Position numbers and translations under genes: made by a program. A DNA stretch of 64,000 nt from Candidatus Falkowbacteria bacterium (GTDB lineage Bacteria > Patescibacteriota > Patescibacteriia > UBA11705 > JABHMO01): assembly GCA_018674305.1 (NCBI GenBank), contig JABHAL010000004.1, positions 192,446 through 256,445 on the forward strand. Direction: 5' to 3'. The notes under the pieces are model-generated. The model was given only the letters and a program-made list of their open reading frames with translations, ran no database searches and was not told where the DNA came from. Shown here piece after piece: positions 216-48,071 of this stretch. Positions within the stretch are counted from its first letter, which is position 1. The number at the start of each line of letters is the position of its first letter.

Positions 216-785
216 TTAATAATTTTCTGACTGAACTTGATAATAAGCTCGTGGATGGTCGCAACTTGGGCACATTTCTGGTGCTTCGTTGCCAGTGTGA
301 GTGTAACCGCATTCACGGCAGATCCAAACAGTTTCATTTTGTTTTTTGTGTACCGTACCGGCTTCTACTTCAGCTAATAATTTTTTGTAACGTTCTTCGT
401 GATGTTTTTCTGCGACGGCAATGGAACGAAAACGTTTGGCGATTTTATCCAAACCTTCTTCGTCTGCAGTTTTGGCAAATTCAGGATACATTTCAGTGTG
501 TTCATGATTTTCACCAGCAATGGCAGCTTTCAGGTTTTCAATCGTTGTGCCATAAACCGTTGGCGCTCCAGTTTCAATGATGACTTCCGCCTGTTCGCCT
601 TTGACTTCCTGAATATGTTCAAATAATCTTTTGGCATGAACCTTTTCTTGCTCTGCAGTTTCCATAAAAATGCCAGCTATTTGTTCAAGACCTTCTTTTT
701 TAGCAACCTTGGCATAAAAAGAGTAGCGATTACGCGCTTGTGATTCACCAACAAAAGCCTTGGTGAGATTTTCAAGTGTTTTCAT
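216..785 (-). CDS. rbr: Rubrerythrin
   Basis: 189 aa; N-terminal ferritin-like diiron domain (EQE..H motifs) plus C-terminal rubredoxin-like CxxC..CxxC (CRECGY...CPSCDHP). Confidence 0.9.
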
Positions 786-9678: not shown

Positions 9679-10542
9679 ATGGTTAACATCGATCAATTAA
9701 TTACTGAGTTTCTAGGTAATCTAGAAAAGCGAAAAAGAACACTACGTACAGTGCGTAACTATGACTTTTATTTGCGTAGATTTTCAGTTTGGCTTAAAGA
9801 AAAAAACATTTCATCTCCAGAAGACATTAATAAAGATTTAATCAAGAAGTATAAAACATATTTAAAGAGAATTAAAAATCCAATAAAAAAAATTAATCTT
9901 AAGGAGACTACTCAGAACTATCACTTGATTGCACTAAGAGAATTTCTGAAATTTTTATATAAAAAAAATGTTCTAACAATAGGATCTAAACAGGTTCATT
10001 TGCATAAAGTAAAATCAGTAAAGGTATCATCGTTAAAAAAAGACGAAATAGGAAAATTTTTAGAAGCACCACAACAAATACGTCAAGATGCTCTCATTTC
10101 CCATAGAGATAGGGCTGTTTTGGAGATTATGTTTTGCACTGGCGCGAAGGTTTCTGAAGTCGCAGACTTGGTAATTAAAGATGTCGACTTCAAAAAACAG
10201 CAAGTGATAGTTGCAAAAGGAAGGAAAAATGAACGTGTGATAGACCTGTCTAATCAAAGTGTTTATTGGGTATCTAAATATTTAAAAAGTAGAGGAGGAA
10301 CACTTCCCTATTTGTTTGTTGGCCACGATAGAGCTAAATCAAAACGAAAACAAAAACCGATCTCAGCAAGAAGCTTGGAGCGTATCGTTCTAAAATATGG
10401 AAAGGTCGCAGGTCTTGAAAAAAAAGTCACACCTCAAATTTTACGTAGTACTTATGCAACTAATTTGGTGAAGAAAGGCCTTGGTTTCCAGTCCATTAAA
10501 AATAAACTTGGTACAACGTCGGATGGTTTCTTGAATTTGTAA
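9679..10542 (+). CDS. Tyrosine recombinase (XerC/D/integrase family)-like protein, probably catalytically inactive or truncated
   Basis: 287 aa; N-terminal SAM-like core-binding domain; box I HRDRAVLEIMFCTGAKVSEV and AKGRKNERV present, but HxxR reads QILR and the ORF stops (…LGTTSDGFLNL*) before the expected catalytic Tyr. Confidence 0.6.
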   Translation: MVNIDQLITEFLGNLEKRKRTLRTVRNYDFYLRRFSVWLKEKNISSPEDINKDLIKKYKTYLKRIKNPIKKINLKETTQNYHLIALREFLKFLYKKNVLTIGSKQVHLHKVKSVKVSSLKKDEIGKFLEAPQQIRQDALISHRDRAVLEIMFCTGAKVSEVADLVIKDVDFKKQQVIVAKGRKNERVIDLSNQSVYWVSKYLKSRGGTLPYLFVGHDRAKSKRKQKPISARSLERIVLKYGKVAGLEKKVTPQILRSTYATNLVKKGLGFQSIKNKLGTTSDGFLNL

Positions 10543-10730: not shown

Positions 10731-10807
10731 GGCGCCAGTAGCTCAGTGGATAGAGCAACACCCTTCTAAGGTGAAGGCCGAAGGTTCGATTCCTTCCTGG
10801 CGCACCA
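10731..10807 (+). tRNA. tRNA-Arg (anticodon TCT), CCA encoded
   Basis: GGCGCCA acceptor stem, D-arm AGCTCAGTGGATAGAGC, anticodon loop CTTCTAA, T-arm GAAGGTTCGATTCCTTC, ends with ACCA. Confidence 0.9.
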
Positions 10808-11129: not shown

Positions 11130-11205
11130 GTCCCGATAGTTCAGCTGGATAGAACACATCCCTCCTAAGGATGGGACCCAGGTTCAAGTCCTGGTCGGGA
11201 CACCA
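11130..11205 (+). tRNA. tRNA-Arg (anticodon CCT), CCA encoded
   Basis: GTCCCGA acceptor stem, anticodon loop CTCCTAA, T-arm CAGGTTCAAGTCCTGG, 3' end TCGGGACACCA. Confidence 0.9.
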
Positions 11206-13407: not shown

Positions 13408-14013
13408 TTATTCAAACAAACTCACATCGCCTTTACCTTTTCTAATAACGATTGGTTCATCGCCGGTTAAATCAATGACGCTTGAAGGAGCATTCTCTAA
13501 AATGCCTGCATCAATAATTAAGTCAACCTGATCACCAAAGTGTTTTTCAATATCTAAAGGATCAGAAAAGTGAGGAGCATGAACTAGGTTAACACTGGTT
13601 GTTACAATTGGGTGACCAAGGTTCTTTATGATATCTAAACAAACAGCATTATCAGGGATTCGAATGGCGACTGTTTTTTTATTTGGGATTAAATCTTTAG
13701 GAACCATTTTTGTAGCTTTAAAAATGAAAGTATAGGGACCTGGTAAAAGTCGTTTCATAATTCGGTAAGCATAGTCTGAAACAATTGCGTATTTAGAAAT
13801 ATCAGTTAAGTCTGGGCAAATAAAACTAAAGCCTGTAGCTTTTTTCTTTTTTATTTTATAAATGCGTTCTACTGCTTCTTTACAAAAAATATTACAACCG
13901 AAACCATAGATAGTATCAGTTGGATATACAATAACGCCACAGTTTTTTAAAATATCAACTGCTTGTTTAATTTTTGGGTATTCTGGGGTTTGGTTGTTTA
14001 TTTCTATAAGCAT
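13408..14013 (-). CDS. tsaC: L-threonylcarbamoyladenylate synthase (TsaC/YrdC/Sua5 family)
   Basis: YPTDTIYGFGCN motif; start set at first ATG (MLIEIN...). The ORF-track start at 14058 is a TTG inside a hairpin. Confidence 0.8.
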   Translation of the reverse strand: MLIEINNQTPEYPKIKQAVDILKNCGVIVYPTDTIYGFGCNIFCKEAVERIYKIKKKKATGFSFICPDLTDISKYAIVSDYAYRIMKRLLPGPYTFIFKATKMVPKDLIPNKKTVAIRIPDNAVCLDIIKNLGHPIVTTSVNLVHAPHFSDPLDIEKHFGDQVDLIIDAGILENAPSSVIDLTGDEPIVIRKGKGDVSLFE

Positions 14014-14193
14014 ATTTGGGATTACTAGATTTACCACAAAGTGGTCACTTCGTGACAAGATAACATACTATGAACTATAACGCCTGTCCTGTACTCATGC
14101 GTAGCAAGTAGTACAGGGACTTGAAGCGTTAAGTACATGGCAAGCAAGATATTACGAGATGATAAAATCTATTTTTAAGAAGATCTTGCAAGT

Positions 14194-19712: not shown

Positions 19713-21722
19713 TTACATCCAGAATTTTGATAGAACGCCAATCATTAGAAGGGCCACAATATTCAAAATTTTAATCATTGGATTAATGGCTGGTCCAGCA
19801 GTGTCCTTGTATGGATCGCCAACAGTATCTCCAGTTACAGCTGCTTTGTGAGCATCAGATCCTTTACCACCGTGATGACCGTCTTCAATATACTTTTTCG
19901 CATTATCCCAAGCTCCACCACCAGTGGTCATAGAAACAGCAACAAATAAACCTGTTACAATACTACCGACTAGTAAACCACCAAGAGCTAATGGCCCAAG
20001 AAATATACCTACAGCAATTGGAACTACAATTGGGATTAAGGCTGGAATAATCATTTGTTTAATAGCAGCTTTAGTTACGATGTCTACACAACGAGCATAA
20101 TCAGGTTTTGCGGTGCCTTCCATAATGCCAGGGATTTGTTTGAACTGTCGGCGGACTTCACTTACAACTTTGCCAGCAGTTTTGCCCACAGCTTGCATTG
20201 ATAAAGCTCCAAATAAATATGGTAAAAGACCACCCAGAAATAGGCCGACTAGAACTTCTGGTGAGCTCAAGCTAAAAATGAATGTTTTCCCAGTTTCTAT
20301 TGATAGAGCATGAGTGTAGTCTGCGAATAAAACCAAGGCAGCTAGGGCAGCTGAGCCGATTGCATAGCCTTTGGTTACAGCTTTGGTTGTATTACCAACT
20401 GCGTCTAGGGGGTCAGTTATATCACGAACTTCTTTTGGCATCTCTGCCATCTCTGCAATCCCGCCAGCATTATCTGTAATCGGGCCATAAGAATCAATAG
20501 CGACAATTATACCACTCATTGAAAGCATGCTCATAGCTGCGATTGCAATACCGTATAGGCCTGCAAAATGAAATGCACCAAGAATGCCCGCACAGATTAT
20601 AATTATCGGCCAACCGGTTGATTTCATTGAAACTGCTAAGCCTGCAATAATATTTGTACCGTGTCCAGTTTTGCTAGCATCAGCAATTTCTTTTACAGGT
20701 TTGTATTTTGTAGAAGTATAATACTCAGTAATGACAATAAGGCCAGCAGTAACTGCTAATCCGATTAATGAAGCGAAAAATAGACTATTGACTGAATATT
20801 CACCATTTCCATCCATTAGCCATTTAGTTGCGGGGTAAAAACCAATAGCTGCTAAAACACCGGCGGCGATTAGGCCTTTGTACAAGGCTCCCATTATATT
20901 TTTCTTGGATTTTAATTTAATAAACCAAGTTCCGATAATTGAAGCAACAATAGAGATACCACCTAAAACTAGTGGATATAAAATAGCATTATCATAACCA
21001 GTGAAAAGTAATGATCCTAAAAACATTGCGGCTACAGCAGTTACAGCGTAAGTTTCAAAAAGGTCAGCTGCCATACCAGCACAGTCACCAACATTGTCAC
21101 CAACATTGTCAGCGATTACAGCTGGGTTTCTTGGGTCGTCTTCTGGAATACCAGCTTCAACTTTACCAACCAAGTCAGCTCCGACATCAGCAGCCTTTGT
21201 AAAAATACCACCACCCAGTCTAGCAAAAATTGAAATTAAACTTCCACCAAAGCCCAAGCCAAGTAGAGCATGAACATCTTTGGTTATAGCATAATAGCCA
21301 GCTACACCGAACAAACCAAGTCCAACAACAAGCAGACCAGTTACCGTTCCTCCCTGGACAGCAACATTCATAGCTTTGCTAATACCGTCTCTAGCAGCCT
21401 CAGCAGTTCTTACATTAGATCGAACTGAAATGTTCATACCTATGTAACCAGCTAGTCCTGATAAAACAGCACCTACCAAAAAGCCAACGGCGGTTTTCCA
21501 GTCGAGGAAGATTAAAAGTAAAATAAAAACAATCACTCCGATAATAGCAATTGTTTTGTATTGACGATTCAAATAAGCTTTAGCTCCTTGTTGAATCGCT
21601 TTGGCAATTTCTTGCATTTTGTCATTGCCAGCGCCTTTTTTAAGAATTACTCTAATCAACACAACTCCGTAAAGAATTGCAATGATTGAAGTAACCAAGG
21701 CGAAAATAATTGGTAGATTCAT
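19713..21722 (-). CDS. hppA: Membrane-bound proton/sodium-translocating pyrophosphatase
   Basis: 669 aa; ~15 TM; GADLVGKVE...[21 protein letters not shown] signature. Confidence 0.9.
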
Positions 21723-22804: not shown

Positions 22805-22878
22805 TTAGGCACAATTATTTCAATTATTTTGCTAGGCGATGGGGTTTACCTTGAACCTGAGCAGAGTGAATGGTTCGG

Positions 22879-22953
22879 GGCCCCATCGTCTAACGGTTAG
22901 GACATCAGGTTTTCATCCTGAAAATCGGGGTTCGATTCCCCGTGGGGTCACCA
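22879..22953 (+). tRNA. tRNA-Glu (anticodon TTC), CCA encoded
   Basis: GGCCCCATCGTCTAACGGTTAGGACATCAGGTTTTCATCCTGAAAATCGGGGTTCGATTCCCCGTGGGGTCACCA. Confidence 0.9.
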
Positions 22954-23170
22954 AAAAACGAATATCGAAAGATAATCGTTTTTTGATTGCTAAATATTCT
23001 TGTAACTTGGGGAATCGAACTAGGGATGGTAAGGGAAGGCTTCCCTTACTTTATGGGGGAGATGGAGGGGCAGAAGCCTTTCCAAGAGCACACGAAGAGG
23101 CGAGTGAGATTCCCCGCCCGCCTGCAACGCTATGCGTAGCATTGCGGACAGGTGGGGTCACCAAAAAAGA
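22954..23170 (+). other. Unassigned structured non-coding segment ending in a 17-bp direct repeat of the tRNA-Glu 3' end
   Basis: gtggggtcaccaaaaaa occurs at 22943-22959 and again at 23152-23168; the interval has hairpins (gtaagggaagg/cttcccttac, tgcaacgc/gcgtagca) and a T-loop-like gagattcccc. Confidence 0.3.
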
Positions 23171-23237
23171 ATCTAGAGGTAGGTTCTTTTTTGTTTATTG
23201 AAGAATTATAACATATAATGTATAGTGAACTATAAAT

Positions 23238-24320
23238 ATGAAGATTCTTGCCATTGAAACAAGCTGTGATGAAACTGCGGCTTCTGTTGTTGAGGTAAAC
23301 AGAGGTAATTTTAATGTACTCTCAAATGTAGTTTCTTCTCAAGAAAAAGTTCACGCCAAATATGGCGGAATTGTACCAGAAGTAGCTGCCCGTCTACATG
23401 TTGAAAAAATATTACCAATAGTTGATTTGGCTATTAAAAAGGCCAAGGTCACTTGGCCGAAAATTGATTACATCGCGGTGACTGCTGGACCGGGCTTAAT
23501 TAGTTCTTTAATGGTTGGAGTGGAGACCGCCAAAACTTTGGCTTATGCCCACAATAAACCCTTAGTTAAAGTTAATCATATCGAAGGCCACCTTTTGTCG
23601 ATTTTAGGGGCAAGAAAGAAAGAAAGCAAAAAAGAAAAAAAACAGCACAGTCGTCAACTCAATAAACCCAATCAACTAAAGTTTCCTGCGGTTGGCTTAG
23701 TTGTTTCCGGTGGACATACTCAAATTATTTTAGTTGAAGATTATTTAAAATATAAATTAATAGGGGAGACTCGAGACGATGCAGCTGGTGAAGCGTTTGA
23801 TAAGGTAGCAAAAATTTTAGGCCTTGGTTATCCAGGTGGACCGGCAATCTCTGCTATGGCAGAGAAGGGGCAAGGGGCAAAGGTTAAAGAGCAAGGAATA
23901 AAACTGCCAAGGCCAATGTTAGATTCCCCAAACTTTGATATGAGTTTTTCAGGATTAAAAACTGCGGTTTTGTATGCTTGGCGTGATTTAAAAGACAAAT
24001 CTGCTAATTCTAGAGCTGAAGTTGCCAAAGAATTCCAGGATGCAGTAGTTGAAGTTTTAGTAACTAAGACATTAAAAGCTGCCAAGAAGTATAATGCTAA
24101 AATGGTTATTCTCGGTGGCGGCGTAAGTGCTAATTCTGCGCTTCGCGAAACTTTGTCTTACGCCGCCACAAAACAGAACTTAAGTTTACTGATTCCAGAG
24201 CTAAAATTAACCGGAGATAATGCTGTTATGATTGGAATGGCAGCTTATTATCATATTCAAAATAAGGATTTTGTGGAACCGTTCAATTTAAGAGCAGATC
24301 CACAGTGGGAGTTAGTCTAA
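23238..24320 (+). CDS. tsaD: tRNA N6-adenosine threonylcarbamoyltransferase
   Basis: MKILAIETSCDETAASVV...; Kae1/TsaD fold with a K-rich insertion. Confidence 0.9.
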   Translation: MKILAIETSCDETAASVVEVNRGNFNVLSNVVSSQEKVHAKYGGIVPEVAARLHVEKILPIVDLAIKKAKVTWPKIDYIAVTAGPGLISSLMVGVETAKTLAYAHNKPLVKVNHIEGHLLSILGARKKESKKEKKQHSRQLNKPNQLKFPAVGLVVSGGHTQIILVEDYLKYKLIGETRDDAAGEAFDKVAKILGLGYPGGPAISAMAEKGQGAKVKEQGIKLPRPMLDSPNFDMSFSGLKTAVLYAWRDLKDKSANSRAEVAKEFQDAVVEVLVTKTLKAAKKYNAKMVILGGGVSANSALRETLSYAATKQNLSLLIPELKLTGDNAVMIGMAAYYHIQNKDFVEPFNLRADPQWELV

Positions 24321-24423
24321 TACGAATATACCTTATGCGAATGATGCAAATATGCGAATATAATTTTTGATGACTATTCGCGGCATTCGTGTATTAGCAT
24401 CATTCTCATTTAAGTTTATTCGT

Positions 24424-24852
24424 ATGCTTACTAATTCAGACAAAGAAACAATTAAACTCGGAAAAGATTTCGCTAAAAAATTAAAAGGTGGGGAAGTGGT
24501 GCTTTTGATTGGCGATCTGGGAGCGGGCAAAACTACATTTGTGAAAGGTGTAGCTCAAGGGCTTGGTATTAAAAAACATATCACCAGTCCAACATTTGTT
24601 TTATTAAAAGTTTATAAAGTCAAAAGCCTAAAGTTAAAAGTTAAAGAATTGATTCATATCGATACATATAGAGGCCTTGATTTGGAAGGTTTAGAAAATA
24701 TTGGAGCGGTTGAATATTTTGGTCGAAAAGACATCGTGTGTTTTGTGGAGTGGGGAGCTGGTTTGGAAAAATTTCTTAAAAAAGGTAAAATAAAGGTATA
24801 TAAAGTTAAAATTAAAAATCTTGATACATATAAAAGACAAATAAACATTTAA
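24424..24852 (+). CDS. tsaE: tRNA threonylcarbamoyladenosine biosynthesis ATPase TsaE
   Basis: P-loop GDLGAGKTTF and SPTFVLLKVY motifs. Start at the internal Met; upstream is a promoter-like tatgcgaat repeat with TATAAT. Confidence 0.8.
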   Translation: MLTNSDKETIKLGKDFAKKLKGGEVVLLIGDLGAGKTTFVKGVAQGLGIKKHITSPTFVLLKVYKVKSLKLKVKELIHIDTYRGLDLEGLENIGAVEYFGRKDIVCFVEWGAGLEKFLKKGKIKVYKVKIKNLDTYKRQINI

Positions 24853-24855
24853 TCT

Positions 24856-26211
24856 ATGGACGTAAACCTCGATAAAATTATTTATCCTAAAGCAAGTGAA
24901 GATTCTAAGGCCAGGGAATTGATTAACTCACCCGAAGAGCTGGAAATTCTAGATGCCCGTTTGGAATTGGCTATAGCATCGCATTGTGAGAAAATTAACG
25001 AAGGGAATAATGGGGTTATTTTTAAATTGAACATAGAAGAGGACGTAAGTGAAGAATTAGAAGCCTTGGTTGCTTATATTGATGAGAGTAGAACAGGGGA
25101 AGGTGAACCAGAAAATGTAGTAAAAATTCTTAAATTGTATAAGCCGGGATCTGGAAGGCGGGAATTTGAGATGCAAAGAAAAGCTTATGAACTTGTTCGT
25201 GATAAGGGAGGTGAAGATTGTGCCCAAATACCAGAACCTGTTTTGTTTAGGGATTTAGAAGTTAAGAATTCAAGAACAAAAGAATTTTTATCCTCAAGAG
25301 GGATTAAAGCTCAGGAGCACATAGAGGTTATTATTATGGATATGGTTCCTGGTGTTGATTTGGCCACTCATTTTTATCGCGAGGTTTTAAGAGGAAATAA
25401 AGGTGCAATTCATTTACATAACGATTTGGATGAAATGGATTTTGCGTCATTGCATCGCGAGGTTTCACAGATATTAAAATTTGAAATTGCTGGAGGCAAG
25501 TCTAGGGATGAAGGAGAAAAAGAATTCGAGAGACGAATGGTGCAAGCCGGTAATGCTAAAAAAATATTTGATACGTTGAAACGGCAAGGATATGTTTTGG
25601 ACCGTAGTATTTTGGATAGAATTGAGAAAACAATTGATATGTTTCATGATAATGGCTTAGCCTTTCGAGATGGGCATCACCGGAATTTTATGTTTAGTGG
25701 AGAAGGTGATGATTTGGAAGTTTTCGTTATTGACTTTGGTAGTTCAACAACCTTTGAAGGTAATTTGACTCGAGATGTATATATTGAGGGGGATAAAGAG
25801 TATCCACATGACAAATCGATAATCGAAAGTTTACGTTCATTAACTAAAACTCGAGAAGAATTAGCTGCTGAAGAATTACATGACGTAGAAACTGATCTAA
25901 AAGGTTTACGGCGGTTGCTCTCGAGGAGAGAAGAAGTGTGGCAACAAACGATAAGTGAATTAGGGGAAGAAGGTTTAAAAATGGAGCAGCTTTATAATTT
26001 ATTGGGAATTAGTCCATTATTGAAAGGTCAAAGCCTAGAGATAAAAAATAAAGCTTTAGTAGCTTTATTGATTGACTTTGTTCAGTCTGGACAATATACT
26101 AGAGAAGAAGTAAAGCAGGAATTAACGAAATTTATTGAAGAAAGTTCAGACTCGGGGCAACTGCCTGTTAGTCAAATAAATCAGTTAGTTCAATTTTTGA
26201 AAATCCTATAA
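24856..26211 (+). CDS. Protein kinase-like fold protein (atypical; RIO/Bud32/Kdo-kinase-like catalytic core)
   Basis: G-loop-like GNNGVIFK, VVKILK lysine, catalytic-loop FRDGHHRN (HRDxxxxN pattern), VIDFG; 4 nt after tsaE. Confidence 0.5.
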   Translation: MDVNLDKIIYPKASEDSKARELINSPEELEILDARLELAIASHCEKINEGNNGVIFKLNIEEDVSEELEALVAYIDESRTGEGEPENVVKILKLYKPGSGRREFEMQRKAYELVRDKGGEDCAQIPEPVLFRDLEVKNSRTKEFLSSRGIKAQEHIEVIIMDMVPGVDLATHFYREVLRGNKGAIHLHNDLDEMDFASLHREVSQILKFEIAGGKSRDEGEKEFERRMVQAGNAKKIFDTLKRQGYVLDRSILDRIEKTIDMFHDNGLAFRDGHHRNFMFSGEGDDLEVFVIDFGSSTTFEGNLTRDVYIEGDKEYPHDKSIIESLRSLTKTREELAAEELHDVETDLKGLRRLLSRREEVWQQTISELGEEGLKMEQLYNLLGISPLLKGQSLEIKNKALVALLIDFVQSGQYTREEVKQELTKFIEESSDSGQLPVSQINQLVQFLKIL

Positions 26212-26256: not shown

Positions 26257-26433
26257 TTAGATTAGAAAATGTTTGACATTGTAGATAGAAATTTTTCCGG
26301 TTGTAAAGGTTACTTTGACTTTGTTACCTCCTTCAATAAGTTCAAATTTCTCTACCAAATCACGTGCTAAAACTGTTTGCTTTGCAATTTGTAGTTTCCT
26401 TTTTTCTTCTTGGTCAAAAGTTCTTTTTTTCAT
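26257..26433 (-). CDS. Possible small protein (58 aa), not in ORF track
   Basis: MKKRTFDQEEKRKLQIAKQTVLARDLVEKFELIEGGNKVKVTFTTGKISIYNVKHFLI; AGGAG 6 nt upstream; TTGACA-containing promoter further upstream. Confidence 0.3.
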   Translation of the reverse strand: MKKRTFDQEEKRKLQIAKQTVLARDLVEKFELIEGGNKVKVTFTTGKISIYNVKHFLI

Positions 26434-47369: not shown

Positions 47370-48071
47370 TTAATCCGCCCCTAGTGTGTCTGCAAAAGCT
47401 TTAGCTTTCTTGTAAAGTTCATAAACATCAGCTACTGTTTCTGCTTCTTTCATCGCAAAGTCGTATACTTTTTTGGCATTTTTGGGATTTTCGTCAATTC
47501 TGAATACTTGGTCACTAATGCCTATTGCTTGAACTTTATCATCAGGGTCAAGTTGGGGAAAATAAAGAGTGTAATCCTGGTACGTACTATCGTAACCAAT
47601 ACTTATGCGAATACCGTTTATTTCAGTTTGTTCATGATATTCCTCTACTAAAAAATCATTTACTTCCCAGTCATAAGCTGTAGGATTTCTGGTGCCAGAA
47701 AATTGAACCTCAAAACCTTGAGCATCAACTTTAACAATGTCACCATGCATCTGTCCATCGGGTAGCATTACTCTTTTTCCCACTACTATTTGTTCTCGGG
47801 TGAGGTAGGGTGTTTTTTCCTCTGGCTCCAACGGGATTCGCTTGTTTTCAATAAATTCGACTATCTGTTCTTTATTTTCAATATAATCGCGTAAAACCTG
47901 CAACGCATCCCTATCTCCGGTTTCAGCTTTTTCTTTTAGCTCATCAAAACCAAGACCATCGGAAATTTCTTTTAGTTTAGCCATCAGCTTATCAAAATGA
48001 ACCTGCTGAACTTCGGTGAAGTTAGCATGAAGGGATTTTTCTTGAATTTGGTTTACTTCCGGAGAAATCAT
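47370..48071 (-). CDS. Hypothetical protein, paralog A (shared N-terminal domain, distinct C-terminal domain)
   Basis: See paralog B; lies immediately downstream of recA. Confidence 0.5.
   Translation of the reverse strand: MISPEVNQIQEKSLHANFTEVQQVHFDKLMAKLKEISDGLGFDELKEKAETGDRDALQVLRDYIENKEQIVEFIENKRIPLEPEEKTPYLTREQIVVGKRVMLPDGQMHGDIVKVDAQGFEVQFSGTRNPTAYDWEVNDFLVEEYHEQTEINGIRISIGYDSTYQDYTLYFPQLDPDDKVQAIGISDQVFRIDENPKNAKKVYDFAMKEAETVADVYELYKKAKAFADTLGAD

Follow-up and report, generated by a model that had tools for sequence, protein, structure and literature searches.

The 451-aa protein encoded at positions 24856-26211 (+) of the DNA studied here belongs to the protein-kinase-like (PKL) superfamily, with a bilobal fold and the full catalytic set. 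The DNA, called the window below, is a 64,000-nt stretch of a Candidatus Falkowbacteria bacterium of the Patescibacteria (contig JABHAL010000004.1, positions 192,446-256,445, assembly GCA_018674305.1). The gene follows tsaD and tsaE, two bacterial genes for the synthesis of N6-threonylcarbamoyladenosine (t6A), and a small gene of the opposite strand converges on its 3' end. We consider it probable that the protein is a catalytically competent phosphotransferase of an uncharacterized Patescibacteria family, that the small convergent protein is its partner, and that the linkage to tsaD-tsaE is inherited operon structure.

Fold and catalytic residues of the kinase

An earlier note on this DNA had described the 451-aa open reading frame (ORF) and quoted four kinase-like motifs from its product. 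The ORF is as described and all four motifs are there, at aa 49-57 (EGNNGVIFK), 88-93 (VVKILK), 270-277 (FRDGHHRN) and 291-295 (VIDFG). The first 23 residues are predicted to be disordered and residues 26-43 form an N-terminal helix, followed by the N-lobe (aa ~44-162) and the C-lobe (aa ~163-330). A helical insertion of ~70 aa lies between alphaD and alphaE of the C-lobe (aa ~170-245), and residues 333-450 make up a family-specific helical C-terminal domain of ~120 aa. The codons of the active-site elements are located as follows.

24997..25020 (+): glycine-rich loop, N48-E-G50-N-N-G53-V-I55
25123..25125 (+): K90, the beta3 ATP-binding lysine in VVKILK, 98% conserved
25663..25686 (+): catalytic loop, F270-RDGHHRN-277, with D272 as predicted catalytic base, N277 as metal ligand and R276 as a family-specific residue
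25732..25740 (+): D293-F-G295 (DFG, with the Mg-binding Asp), D293 99% conserved

An exhaustive profile search collected 342 cluster representatives of the family (50% identity) at E<=1e-30, nearly all of them 430-480 aa long and matched end to end. The conservation figures come from an alignment of 156 of these representatives. G50, K90, E103, D272, N277 and D293 are conserved in 97-99% of the sequences (G50 in 97%), and so are K93 and R276, which are specific to the family; D272, R276 and N277 each reach 99%, G53 is kept in 90% and D319 in 89%. In the family alignment A1, N48, G50, N51, N52 and G53 are invariant. D319 is the putative alphaF Asp of protein kinases. Because the catalytic residues are conserved at 97-99%, the protein is probably an active phosphotransferase, and the family likely consists of active enzymes rather than pseudokinases. 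The glycine loop is atypical, with GNNG for GxGxxG, and the His of the HRD motif is replaced by Phe, as might be expected of a pseudokinase scaffold without catalysis. However, given the catalytic residues kept across 156 sequences, the full-length conservation over 342 clusters and the confidence of the fold model (below), we regard a pseudokinase or a chance ORF as extremely unlikely.

Sequence and structure comparisons agree on the kinase-like core that the note had proposed. In Pfam, the window kinase matches APH at a borderline level (E=6e-5, 23.4 bits against a gathering cutoff of 23.2, aa 91-297) and Pkinase (PF00069) below threshold (E=0.0025, 17.7 bits against 31.7, profile positions 101-152 aligned), and it scores weakly with the Kdo kinase model. 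Its relatives reach up to 43.3 bits with Pkinase, several past the gathering score and with the catalytic core only, and 16.5-27.5 bits with APH. In a phmmer search of Protein Data Bank (PDB) sequences, MSK1 and CaMKIV were aligned with aa 233-304 over their stretch from alphaE through the catalytic loop to DFG, and the catalytic loop of the window kinase fell on their HRDxxxxN. A ten-sequence family profile searched against the same sequences found CDPK1 first (E=1e-7), then PknA, ULK1 and CK1. The AlphaFold2 model (predicted local distance difference test score, pLDDT, 79.8; predicted template modeling score 0.70) shows the N-lobe, the C-lobe, the insertion and the C-terminal domain. Foldseek matched it to MK2, CaMKII, CASK, MSK1, Chk2 and PINK1 in the PDB with probability 1.00 and E ~1e-4; the template modeling (TM) scores are low (0.25-0.41) because of the extra elements of the kinase.

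The best matches are thus Hanks-type Ser/Thr kinases, both of the CAMK type (MK2, CaMKII, the MSK1 C-terminal domain, CDPK1) and of the bacterial PknA/PknB type. The window kinase has in common with them the bilobal fold, the beta3 Lys, the alphaC Glu, the xRDxxxxN catalytic loop and the DFG Asp. However, the sequence likeness is limited to alphaE, the catalytic loop and DFG (~60 residues). The window kinase has a GNNG glycine loop, lacks an APE motif and a recognisable GHI subdomain, and adds the alphaD-alphaE insertion and the helical C-terminal domain to the common core.

A small-molecule kinase, acting on a metabolite, antibiotic, sugar or lipid head group in the manner of APH, choline kinase or Kdo kinase, would account for several of these features. 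APH is the sole Pfam model at its gathering score, is aligned from the N-lobe to DFG and matches other members of the family as well. The missing APE motif and the short segment after DFG point in the same direction; APH/choline-kinase types (PF01636) likewise have a short post-DFG segment and extra C-lobe helices. The catalytic-loop residue R276 is family-specific, and one clade has a PAP2 lipid-phosphatase gene as a neighbour. On the other hand, only protein kinases are among the top matches in structure and sequence, the fold search places them above APH-type structures, and several members exceed the Pkinase gathering score. The catalytic loop of the window kinase is RDGHHRN, whereas that of APH is typically HGDxxxxN. 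D319 likely occupies the expected alphaF Asp site, and the conserved small protein partner suggests a function in protein-protein contacts. With the nearest matches, D319 and a partner that is itself a protein all pointing to a protein substrate, we judge the small-molecule alternative to be unlikely, although it deserves attention.

Distribution of the kinase family

Genomes that encode the family belong to the Magasanik-, Uhr-, Buchanan-, Parcu- and Falkowbacteria, and Paceibacteria metagenome-assembled genomes are found in addition among the Genome Taxonomy Database (GTDB) species representatives. The family is uncharacterized, is found in Patescibacteria and has no curated family model. 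No informative domain fusions were found in its longer members. In the literature we found no account of Hanks-type kinases in Patescibacteria nor of the present kinase family. The kinase represents a new divergent family of a superfamily that is itself well known; its architecture is unusual, and its micro-protein partner is conserved.

Gene organization and the small convergent protein

The genes of the locus that concern the kinase are the following.

23238..24320 (+): tsaD, bacterial type (TIGR03723), 360 aa, the first gene of the apparent operon
24370..24852 (+): tsaE, 160 aa from the ATG at 24370 and also 160 aa in public records, directly upstream of the kinase gene
24856..26211 (+): kinase-like gene, an ORF of 451 aa with its translation
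26257..26433 (-): small convergent ORF, 58 aa, which begins 46 nt past the kinase stop codon
26511..28313 (-): pilB-like gene for a T2SSE/MshEN ATPase, the other conserved member of the lineage-specific block
13408..14058 (-): tsaC of the Sua5/YrdC family, 216 aa (Pfam PF01300, E=4.1e-54), part of the context outside the operon

The genes tsaD, tsaE and the kinase-fold ORF are arranged head to tail on the + strand. At the junction the TAA stop of tsaE ends at 24852 and the kinase ATG lies at 24856, leaving 3 nt between them, in line with the distance of within 4 nt given in the note; an in-frame TTG at 24367 stands ahead of the tsaE ATG. A promoter/terminator scan found a promoter-like site ahead of tsaD (23198-23226) and no terminator-like sites between tsaD, tsaE and the kinase gene. 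The tsaE and kinase genes are probably co-transcribed with tsaD, and this apparent operon recurs in relatives. The NCBI assembly GCA_018703365.1 contains the entire locus as well, and so do many contigs of marine metagenomes.

A tRNA-Glu(UUC) gene (22879-22953 (+)) lies just 5' of tsaD with promoter-like and terminator-like sites of its own, which makes a 120-aa ORF at 22839-23201 spurious. The tRNA-Glu is no t6A substrate.

The product of the small ORF is predicted to form a helix and three beta-strands and is 100% identical to the hypothetical protein HN858_03270 [Candidatus Falkowbacteria bacterium]. We gathered 29 distinct loci of the kinase family (loci other than the window are numbered with an L below), 24 of which have informative upstream sequence and 27 downstream sequence. 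Small ORFs of 56-71 aa on the opposite strand, 7-67 nt past the kinase stop, were present in every locus first examined. Overall, 19 of the 27 loci have one at the 3' end of the kinase gene, and the eight without one are mostly the most distant, Der-linked kinases. The small ORF is therefore a more faithful companion of the kinase than tsaE (19/27 against 7/24 loci). The small proteins share a basic helix followed by the pattern RG[LF]xVxφ...G...TG[KR], where φ is a hydrophobic residue. The six-frame ORFs of all loci and of the entire window, 6852 in number, were searched with a hidden Markov model (HMM) of 16 small proteins. The HMM matched exclusively at the kinase 3' position and picked up the non-seed copy of L013 at E=5.6e-6.

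The reciprocal search, in which a small-protein profile was run against the database, returned the seed proteins and two new proteins, both convergent to a gene of the kinase family. One of these kinase neighbours (L037) is 38% identical to the kinase of the window (E=2e-68). The other (L039) is cut by the contig end and shares the C-terminal pattern YLE...DLARNRKGAE with the L037 kinase. The pairing of kinase and small protein is the most consistent genomic partnership of the family.

The small protein had no Pfam, PADLOC or PHROG match. Its AlphaFold2 model, made from a two-sequence alignment, shows the helix and three strands at pLDDT 69, and Foldseek with this model found no neighbour below E=0.4. 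A HicA-like fold, considered because of a loose resemblance, was rejected on an hhalign probability of 3.5% and the lack of a Pfam match.

A conserved pair of a kinase and a basic protein of such small size could also be a two-gene conflict module, such as a toxin-antitoxin or anti-phage pair of the HipA or Stk2 type. PADLOC and PHROGs gave no specific match, only generic catalytic-loop matches for one distant member, and the comparison with HicA failed as described. The convergent orientation is atypical of toxin-antitoxin operons, the context within each clade is a stable housekeeping one with no sign of mobility, and the pair appears to be vertically inherited across Patescibacteria. A conflict module is thus highly improbable.

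Gene context across relatives

Synteny with tsaD, whose lack in relatives the note had named among the points against its proposal, is present in one part of the family and missing from the larger part. Among the 24 informative loci, tsaE is directly upstream of the kinase gene in seven (the window, L001, L003, L004, L010, L012 and L019; L008 comes from the same organism as L019). In L020 the order is rearranged, with tsaD-tsaE 2 kb downstream of the kinase gene. Counted together, 8/24 loci have tsaD or tsaE at a distance of up to 6 kb from the kinase gene, and in 16/24 neither is near it. In the seven loci the junction of tsaE with the kinase gene is always tight, the two genes overlapping by up to 44 nt or being at most 5 nt apart. 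All seven also have a pilB-like gene on the other side of the kinase, so that the kinase is linked to pilB to the same degree as to tsaE.

The neighbours differ in other clades. A Der-like GTPase gene is divergently upstream in six loci, and three loci have an NTP-transferase gene upstream and a PAP2 gene downstream. The contexts follow the clades on a neighbour-joining tree of the kinases, which is the pattern expected of inherited gene order with occasional break-up. The arrangement tsaD-tsaE-kinase / small ORF-pilB is thus a lineage-specific synteny block of the Falkow-/Uhrbacteria lineage, and we do not read the tsaD-tsaE linkage as evidence of a Bud32-like subunit or a TsaB substitute.

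In L019 (Candidatus Uhrbacteria bacterium SJ814, JADZEJ010000001.1, 2193-5908) the tsaD 3' end and the whole of tsaE are duplicated as a ~700-bp direct repeat flanking a ~1.5-kb insert of unrelated ORFs. Directly in front of the kinase gene stands the second copy, which consists of tsaE and a fragment of tsaD. This looks like an insertion or duplication event within the operon. In L004 (1714-4831), the kinase/small-ORF pair and pilB are separated by several small ORFs together with a CYTH-domain gene and a further gene that matches Phage_30_3 and NADAR; this insert may be mobile or phage-derived.

The t6A machinery and the comparison with Bud32

The TsaC, TsaD and TsaE proteins of the window are of canonical bacterial types as judged from their family models. 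TsaD scores 401.9 bits with NCBIfam TIGR03723 (cutoff 296.1) and 175.9 with the archaeal Kae1 model TIGR03722 (cutoff 375), and TsaE scores 108.1 bits with TIGR00150 (cutoff 60.1) and E=4e-34 with Pfam TsaE. The tsaC gene lies ~10 kb from tsaD-tsaE, so the window holds three of the four bacterial t6A genes, tsaB being the one not among them. The note had seen no tsaB, and this observation extends to 10 kb past each end of the window: besides tsaD there is no PF00814/YeaZ-like ORF in this region. The search used phmmer, with the window TsaD and an E. coli YeaZ sequence as queries, and Pfam on 20 mid-sized ORFs of the window. With the same phmmer queries no tsaB was found within 6 kb of any family locus.

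The crystal structure of TsaBDE shows TsaE contacting TsaB and TsaD asymmetrically and binding neither homodimer, and it is Pcc1, not Bud32, that mimics the helical-bundle interface of TsaB-TsaD (PMC6009658). A survey reported bacteria without TsaE, two of them without both TsaB and TsaE, and none with TsaE and no TsaB (PMC4615747). Since TsaE needs the TsaB-TsaD heterodimer, a tsaB gene is expected elsewhere in the genome, and a substitute for TsaB would not be expected to have a kinase fold. The known bacterial TsaB-TsaD-TsaE complex has no kinase-fold subunit. In the literature we found no work on t6A genes in the candidate phyla radiation (CPR)/Patescibacteria, and none that describes a kinase as partner of bacterial TsaD/TsaE.

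Bud32/PRPK and RIO are members of the same superfamily as the window kinase, and the TsaD homolog Kae1 partners a kinase-fold protein in archaea and eukaryotes, as the window kinase is co-operonic with tsaD. Kae1 and Bud32 are adjacent or fused in archaea (PMC9654439). The note had built on this analogy with KEOPS and named Bud32, RIO and Kdo kinases as the families to compare. The best matches of the window kinase are PknA, CK1 and kinases of the CAMK type, with APH as a marginal one. The NCBIfam Bud32 model TIGR03724 has a cutoff of 125 bits and gave 12.9 (E=0.057), aligned to the catalytic loop only, RIO1 was not matched in Pfam, and neither Bud32 nor RIO is among the top 50 Foldseek and top 60 PDB sequence matches. 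Membership of the Bud32, RIO or Kdo-kinase families was rejected on these NCBIfam/Pfam scores and the fold ranking.

Bud32 is a minimal kinase of ~220 aa (about 200-260 aa) without extra domains. The TIGR03724 profile has a length of 193, and the window kinase, at 451 aa and about twice the size of Bud32, does not share its minimal architecture. Nor is there, across the family, an obligate association with a Kae1 homolog like that of Bud32: the genomic partners are bacterial TsaD and TsaE, not Kae1, Pcc1 and Cgi121, and the tsaD linkage is confined to one lineage. A Bud32-like role for the kinase is unlikely. Placement in a family other than Bud32 and lack of tsaD synteny had been named beforehand among the observations that would speak against the analogy, and they largely describe what was found.

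The kinase could still serve t6A synthesis as a Bud32-like ATPase/kinase docking on TsaD, as a TsaB substitute or as a kinase phosphorylating TsaD/TsaE. The tight operon, which persists in seven loci down to 31% kinase identity, the linkage still seen in L020, the presence of tsaC, tsaD and tsaE in a region with no visible tsaB and the archaeal precedent of Kae1-Bud32 (PMC9654439) all favor such an accessory. However, the kinase has no specific similarity to Bud32/RIO, carries a large insertion and a C-terminal domain that the minimal Bud32 does not have, and stands away from tsaD/tsaE in two thirds of the informative loci (16/24). Its linkage to tsaE is no stronger than that to pilB, and the TsaD of the window is of the bacterial type, not Kae1-like. 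Further, TsaE requires the TsaB-TsaD heterodimer and the analogue of TsaB is Pcc1 (PMC6009658); a kinase fold would presumably be unable to mimic an ASKHA-fold helical-bundle partner. We therefore consider a t6A accessory to be quite improbable. A particular form of it is a recruitment of the kinase and its 60-aa partner that is confined to the Falkow-/Uhrbacteria lineage; the kinase would be translated along with TsaD-TsaE and work on these proteins or in concert with them, as an independently evolved bacterial counterpart of Kae1-Bud32 that possibly compensates for a lost or highly divergent TsaB. We give this form very little probability.

Several observations weigh against our preferred explanation, an enzyme with a small protein partner that is linked to tsaD-tsaE by inherited gene order. 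First, tsaB was not found in ~84 kb (the window and 10 kb on each side) despite tsaC, tsaD and tsaE being there. Second, the tight tsaE-kinase junction is kept although the kinases are just 31-85% identical to that of the window, and L020 remains linked; such persistence can reflect selection for co-expression. Third, other contexts of the family are translation-related too (Der, Pth, QueA), so the kinase may have a role tied to translation. Finally, an HMM built from loci without tsaE finds the small proteins of L013, L012 and L010, but not the copies of the window, L003, L004 and L008. The small ORF of the window is accordingly a divergent member, placed by its position, size, orientation, helix-plus-strands pattern and intermediate sequences.

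Possible mechanism and significance

In the mechanism that we propose, ATP would lie under the N48-G53 glycine loop and be positioned by the K90-E103 pair, with D272 acting as the catalytic base and N277 and D293 holding Mg2+. The gamma-phosphate would be transferred to a substrate, most likely a protein side chain. Recognition of a substrate or partner is probably the task of the alphaD-alphaE insertion and of the helical domain at the C-terminus. The basic protein of ~60 aa encoded convergently past the kinase stop may be the regulator, adaptor or substrate of the kinase. In the lineage to which this Falkowbacteria genome belongs the kinase gene would have been inherited inside the tsaD-tsaE-kinase / small ORF-pilB block as part of the operon structure of a compact genome, and its function would be independent of t6A synthesis.

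If this explanation is true, it defines a family of kinases that only Patescibacteria have, with ~342 clusters at 50% identity and a micro-protein partner. Signalling in the reduced, host-dependent Patescibacteria is almost unstudied, and both the kinase and the small protein are without a curated family or a name. The family is thus a reasonable target for structural and biochemical work and may be of use to researchers of Patescibacteria and of kinase evolution. The explanation also puts right an analogy that is appealing but has little foundation, as adjacency to tsaD-tsaE alone does not make a bacterial Bud32. As it stands, there is no surprising result for the t6A field. If the kinase were an accessory of t6A synthesis after all, it would be a case of convergent recruitment of a kinase fold to a universal pathway, with bearing on the roles of Bud32 and TsaE.

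Other features of the window

A 233-aa ORF at 47370-48071 (-) has a weak Pfam match to the Pan3 pseudokinase domain (E=0.0017, below cutoff). The match is probably noise; otherwise it would be a second kinase-related hint in the window. A tyrosine-recombinase gene of the phage-integrase family (9679-10542 (+)) adjoins two tRNA-Arg genes at 10732-10807 (+) and 11130-11205 (+), with the anticodons UCU and CCU. The recombinase could be XerC/D-like or the marker of an integrated element. Genes for a membrane H+-pyrophosphatase, a rubrerythrin, a Fur-family regulator and a desulfoferrodoxin were also seen (window 19713-21722 (-) and 216-785 (-); L035 10657-11031), a set in keeping with Patescibacteria that live anaerobically or as microaerophiles and defend themselves against oxidative stress.

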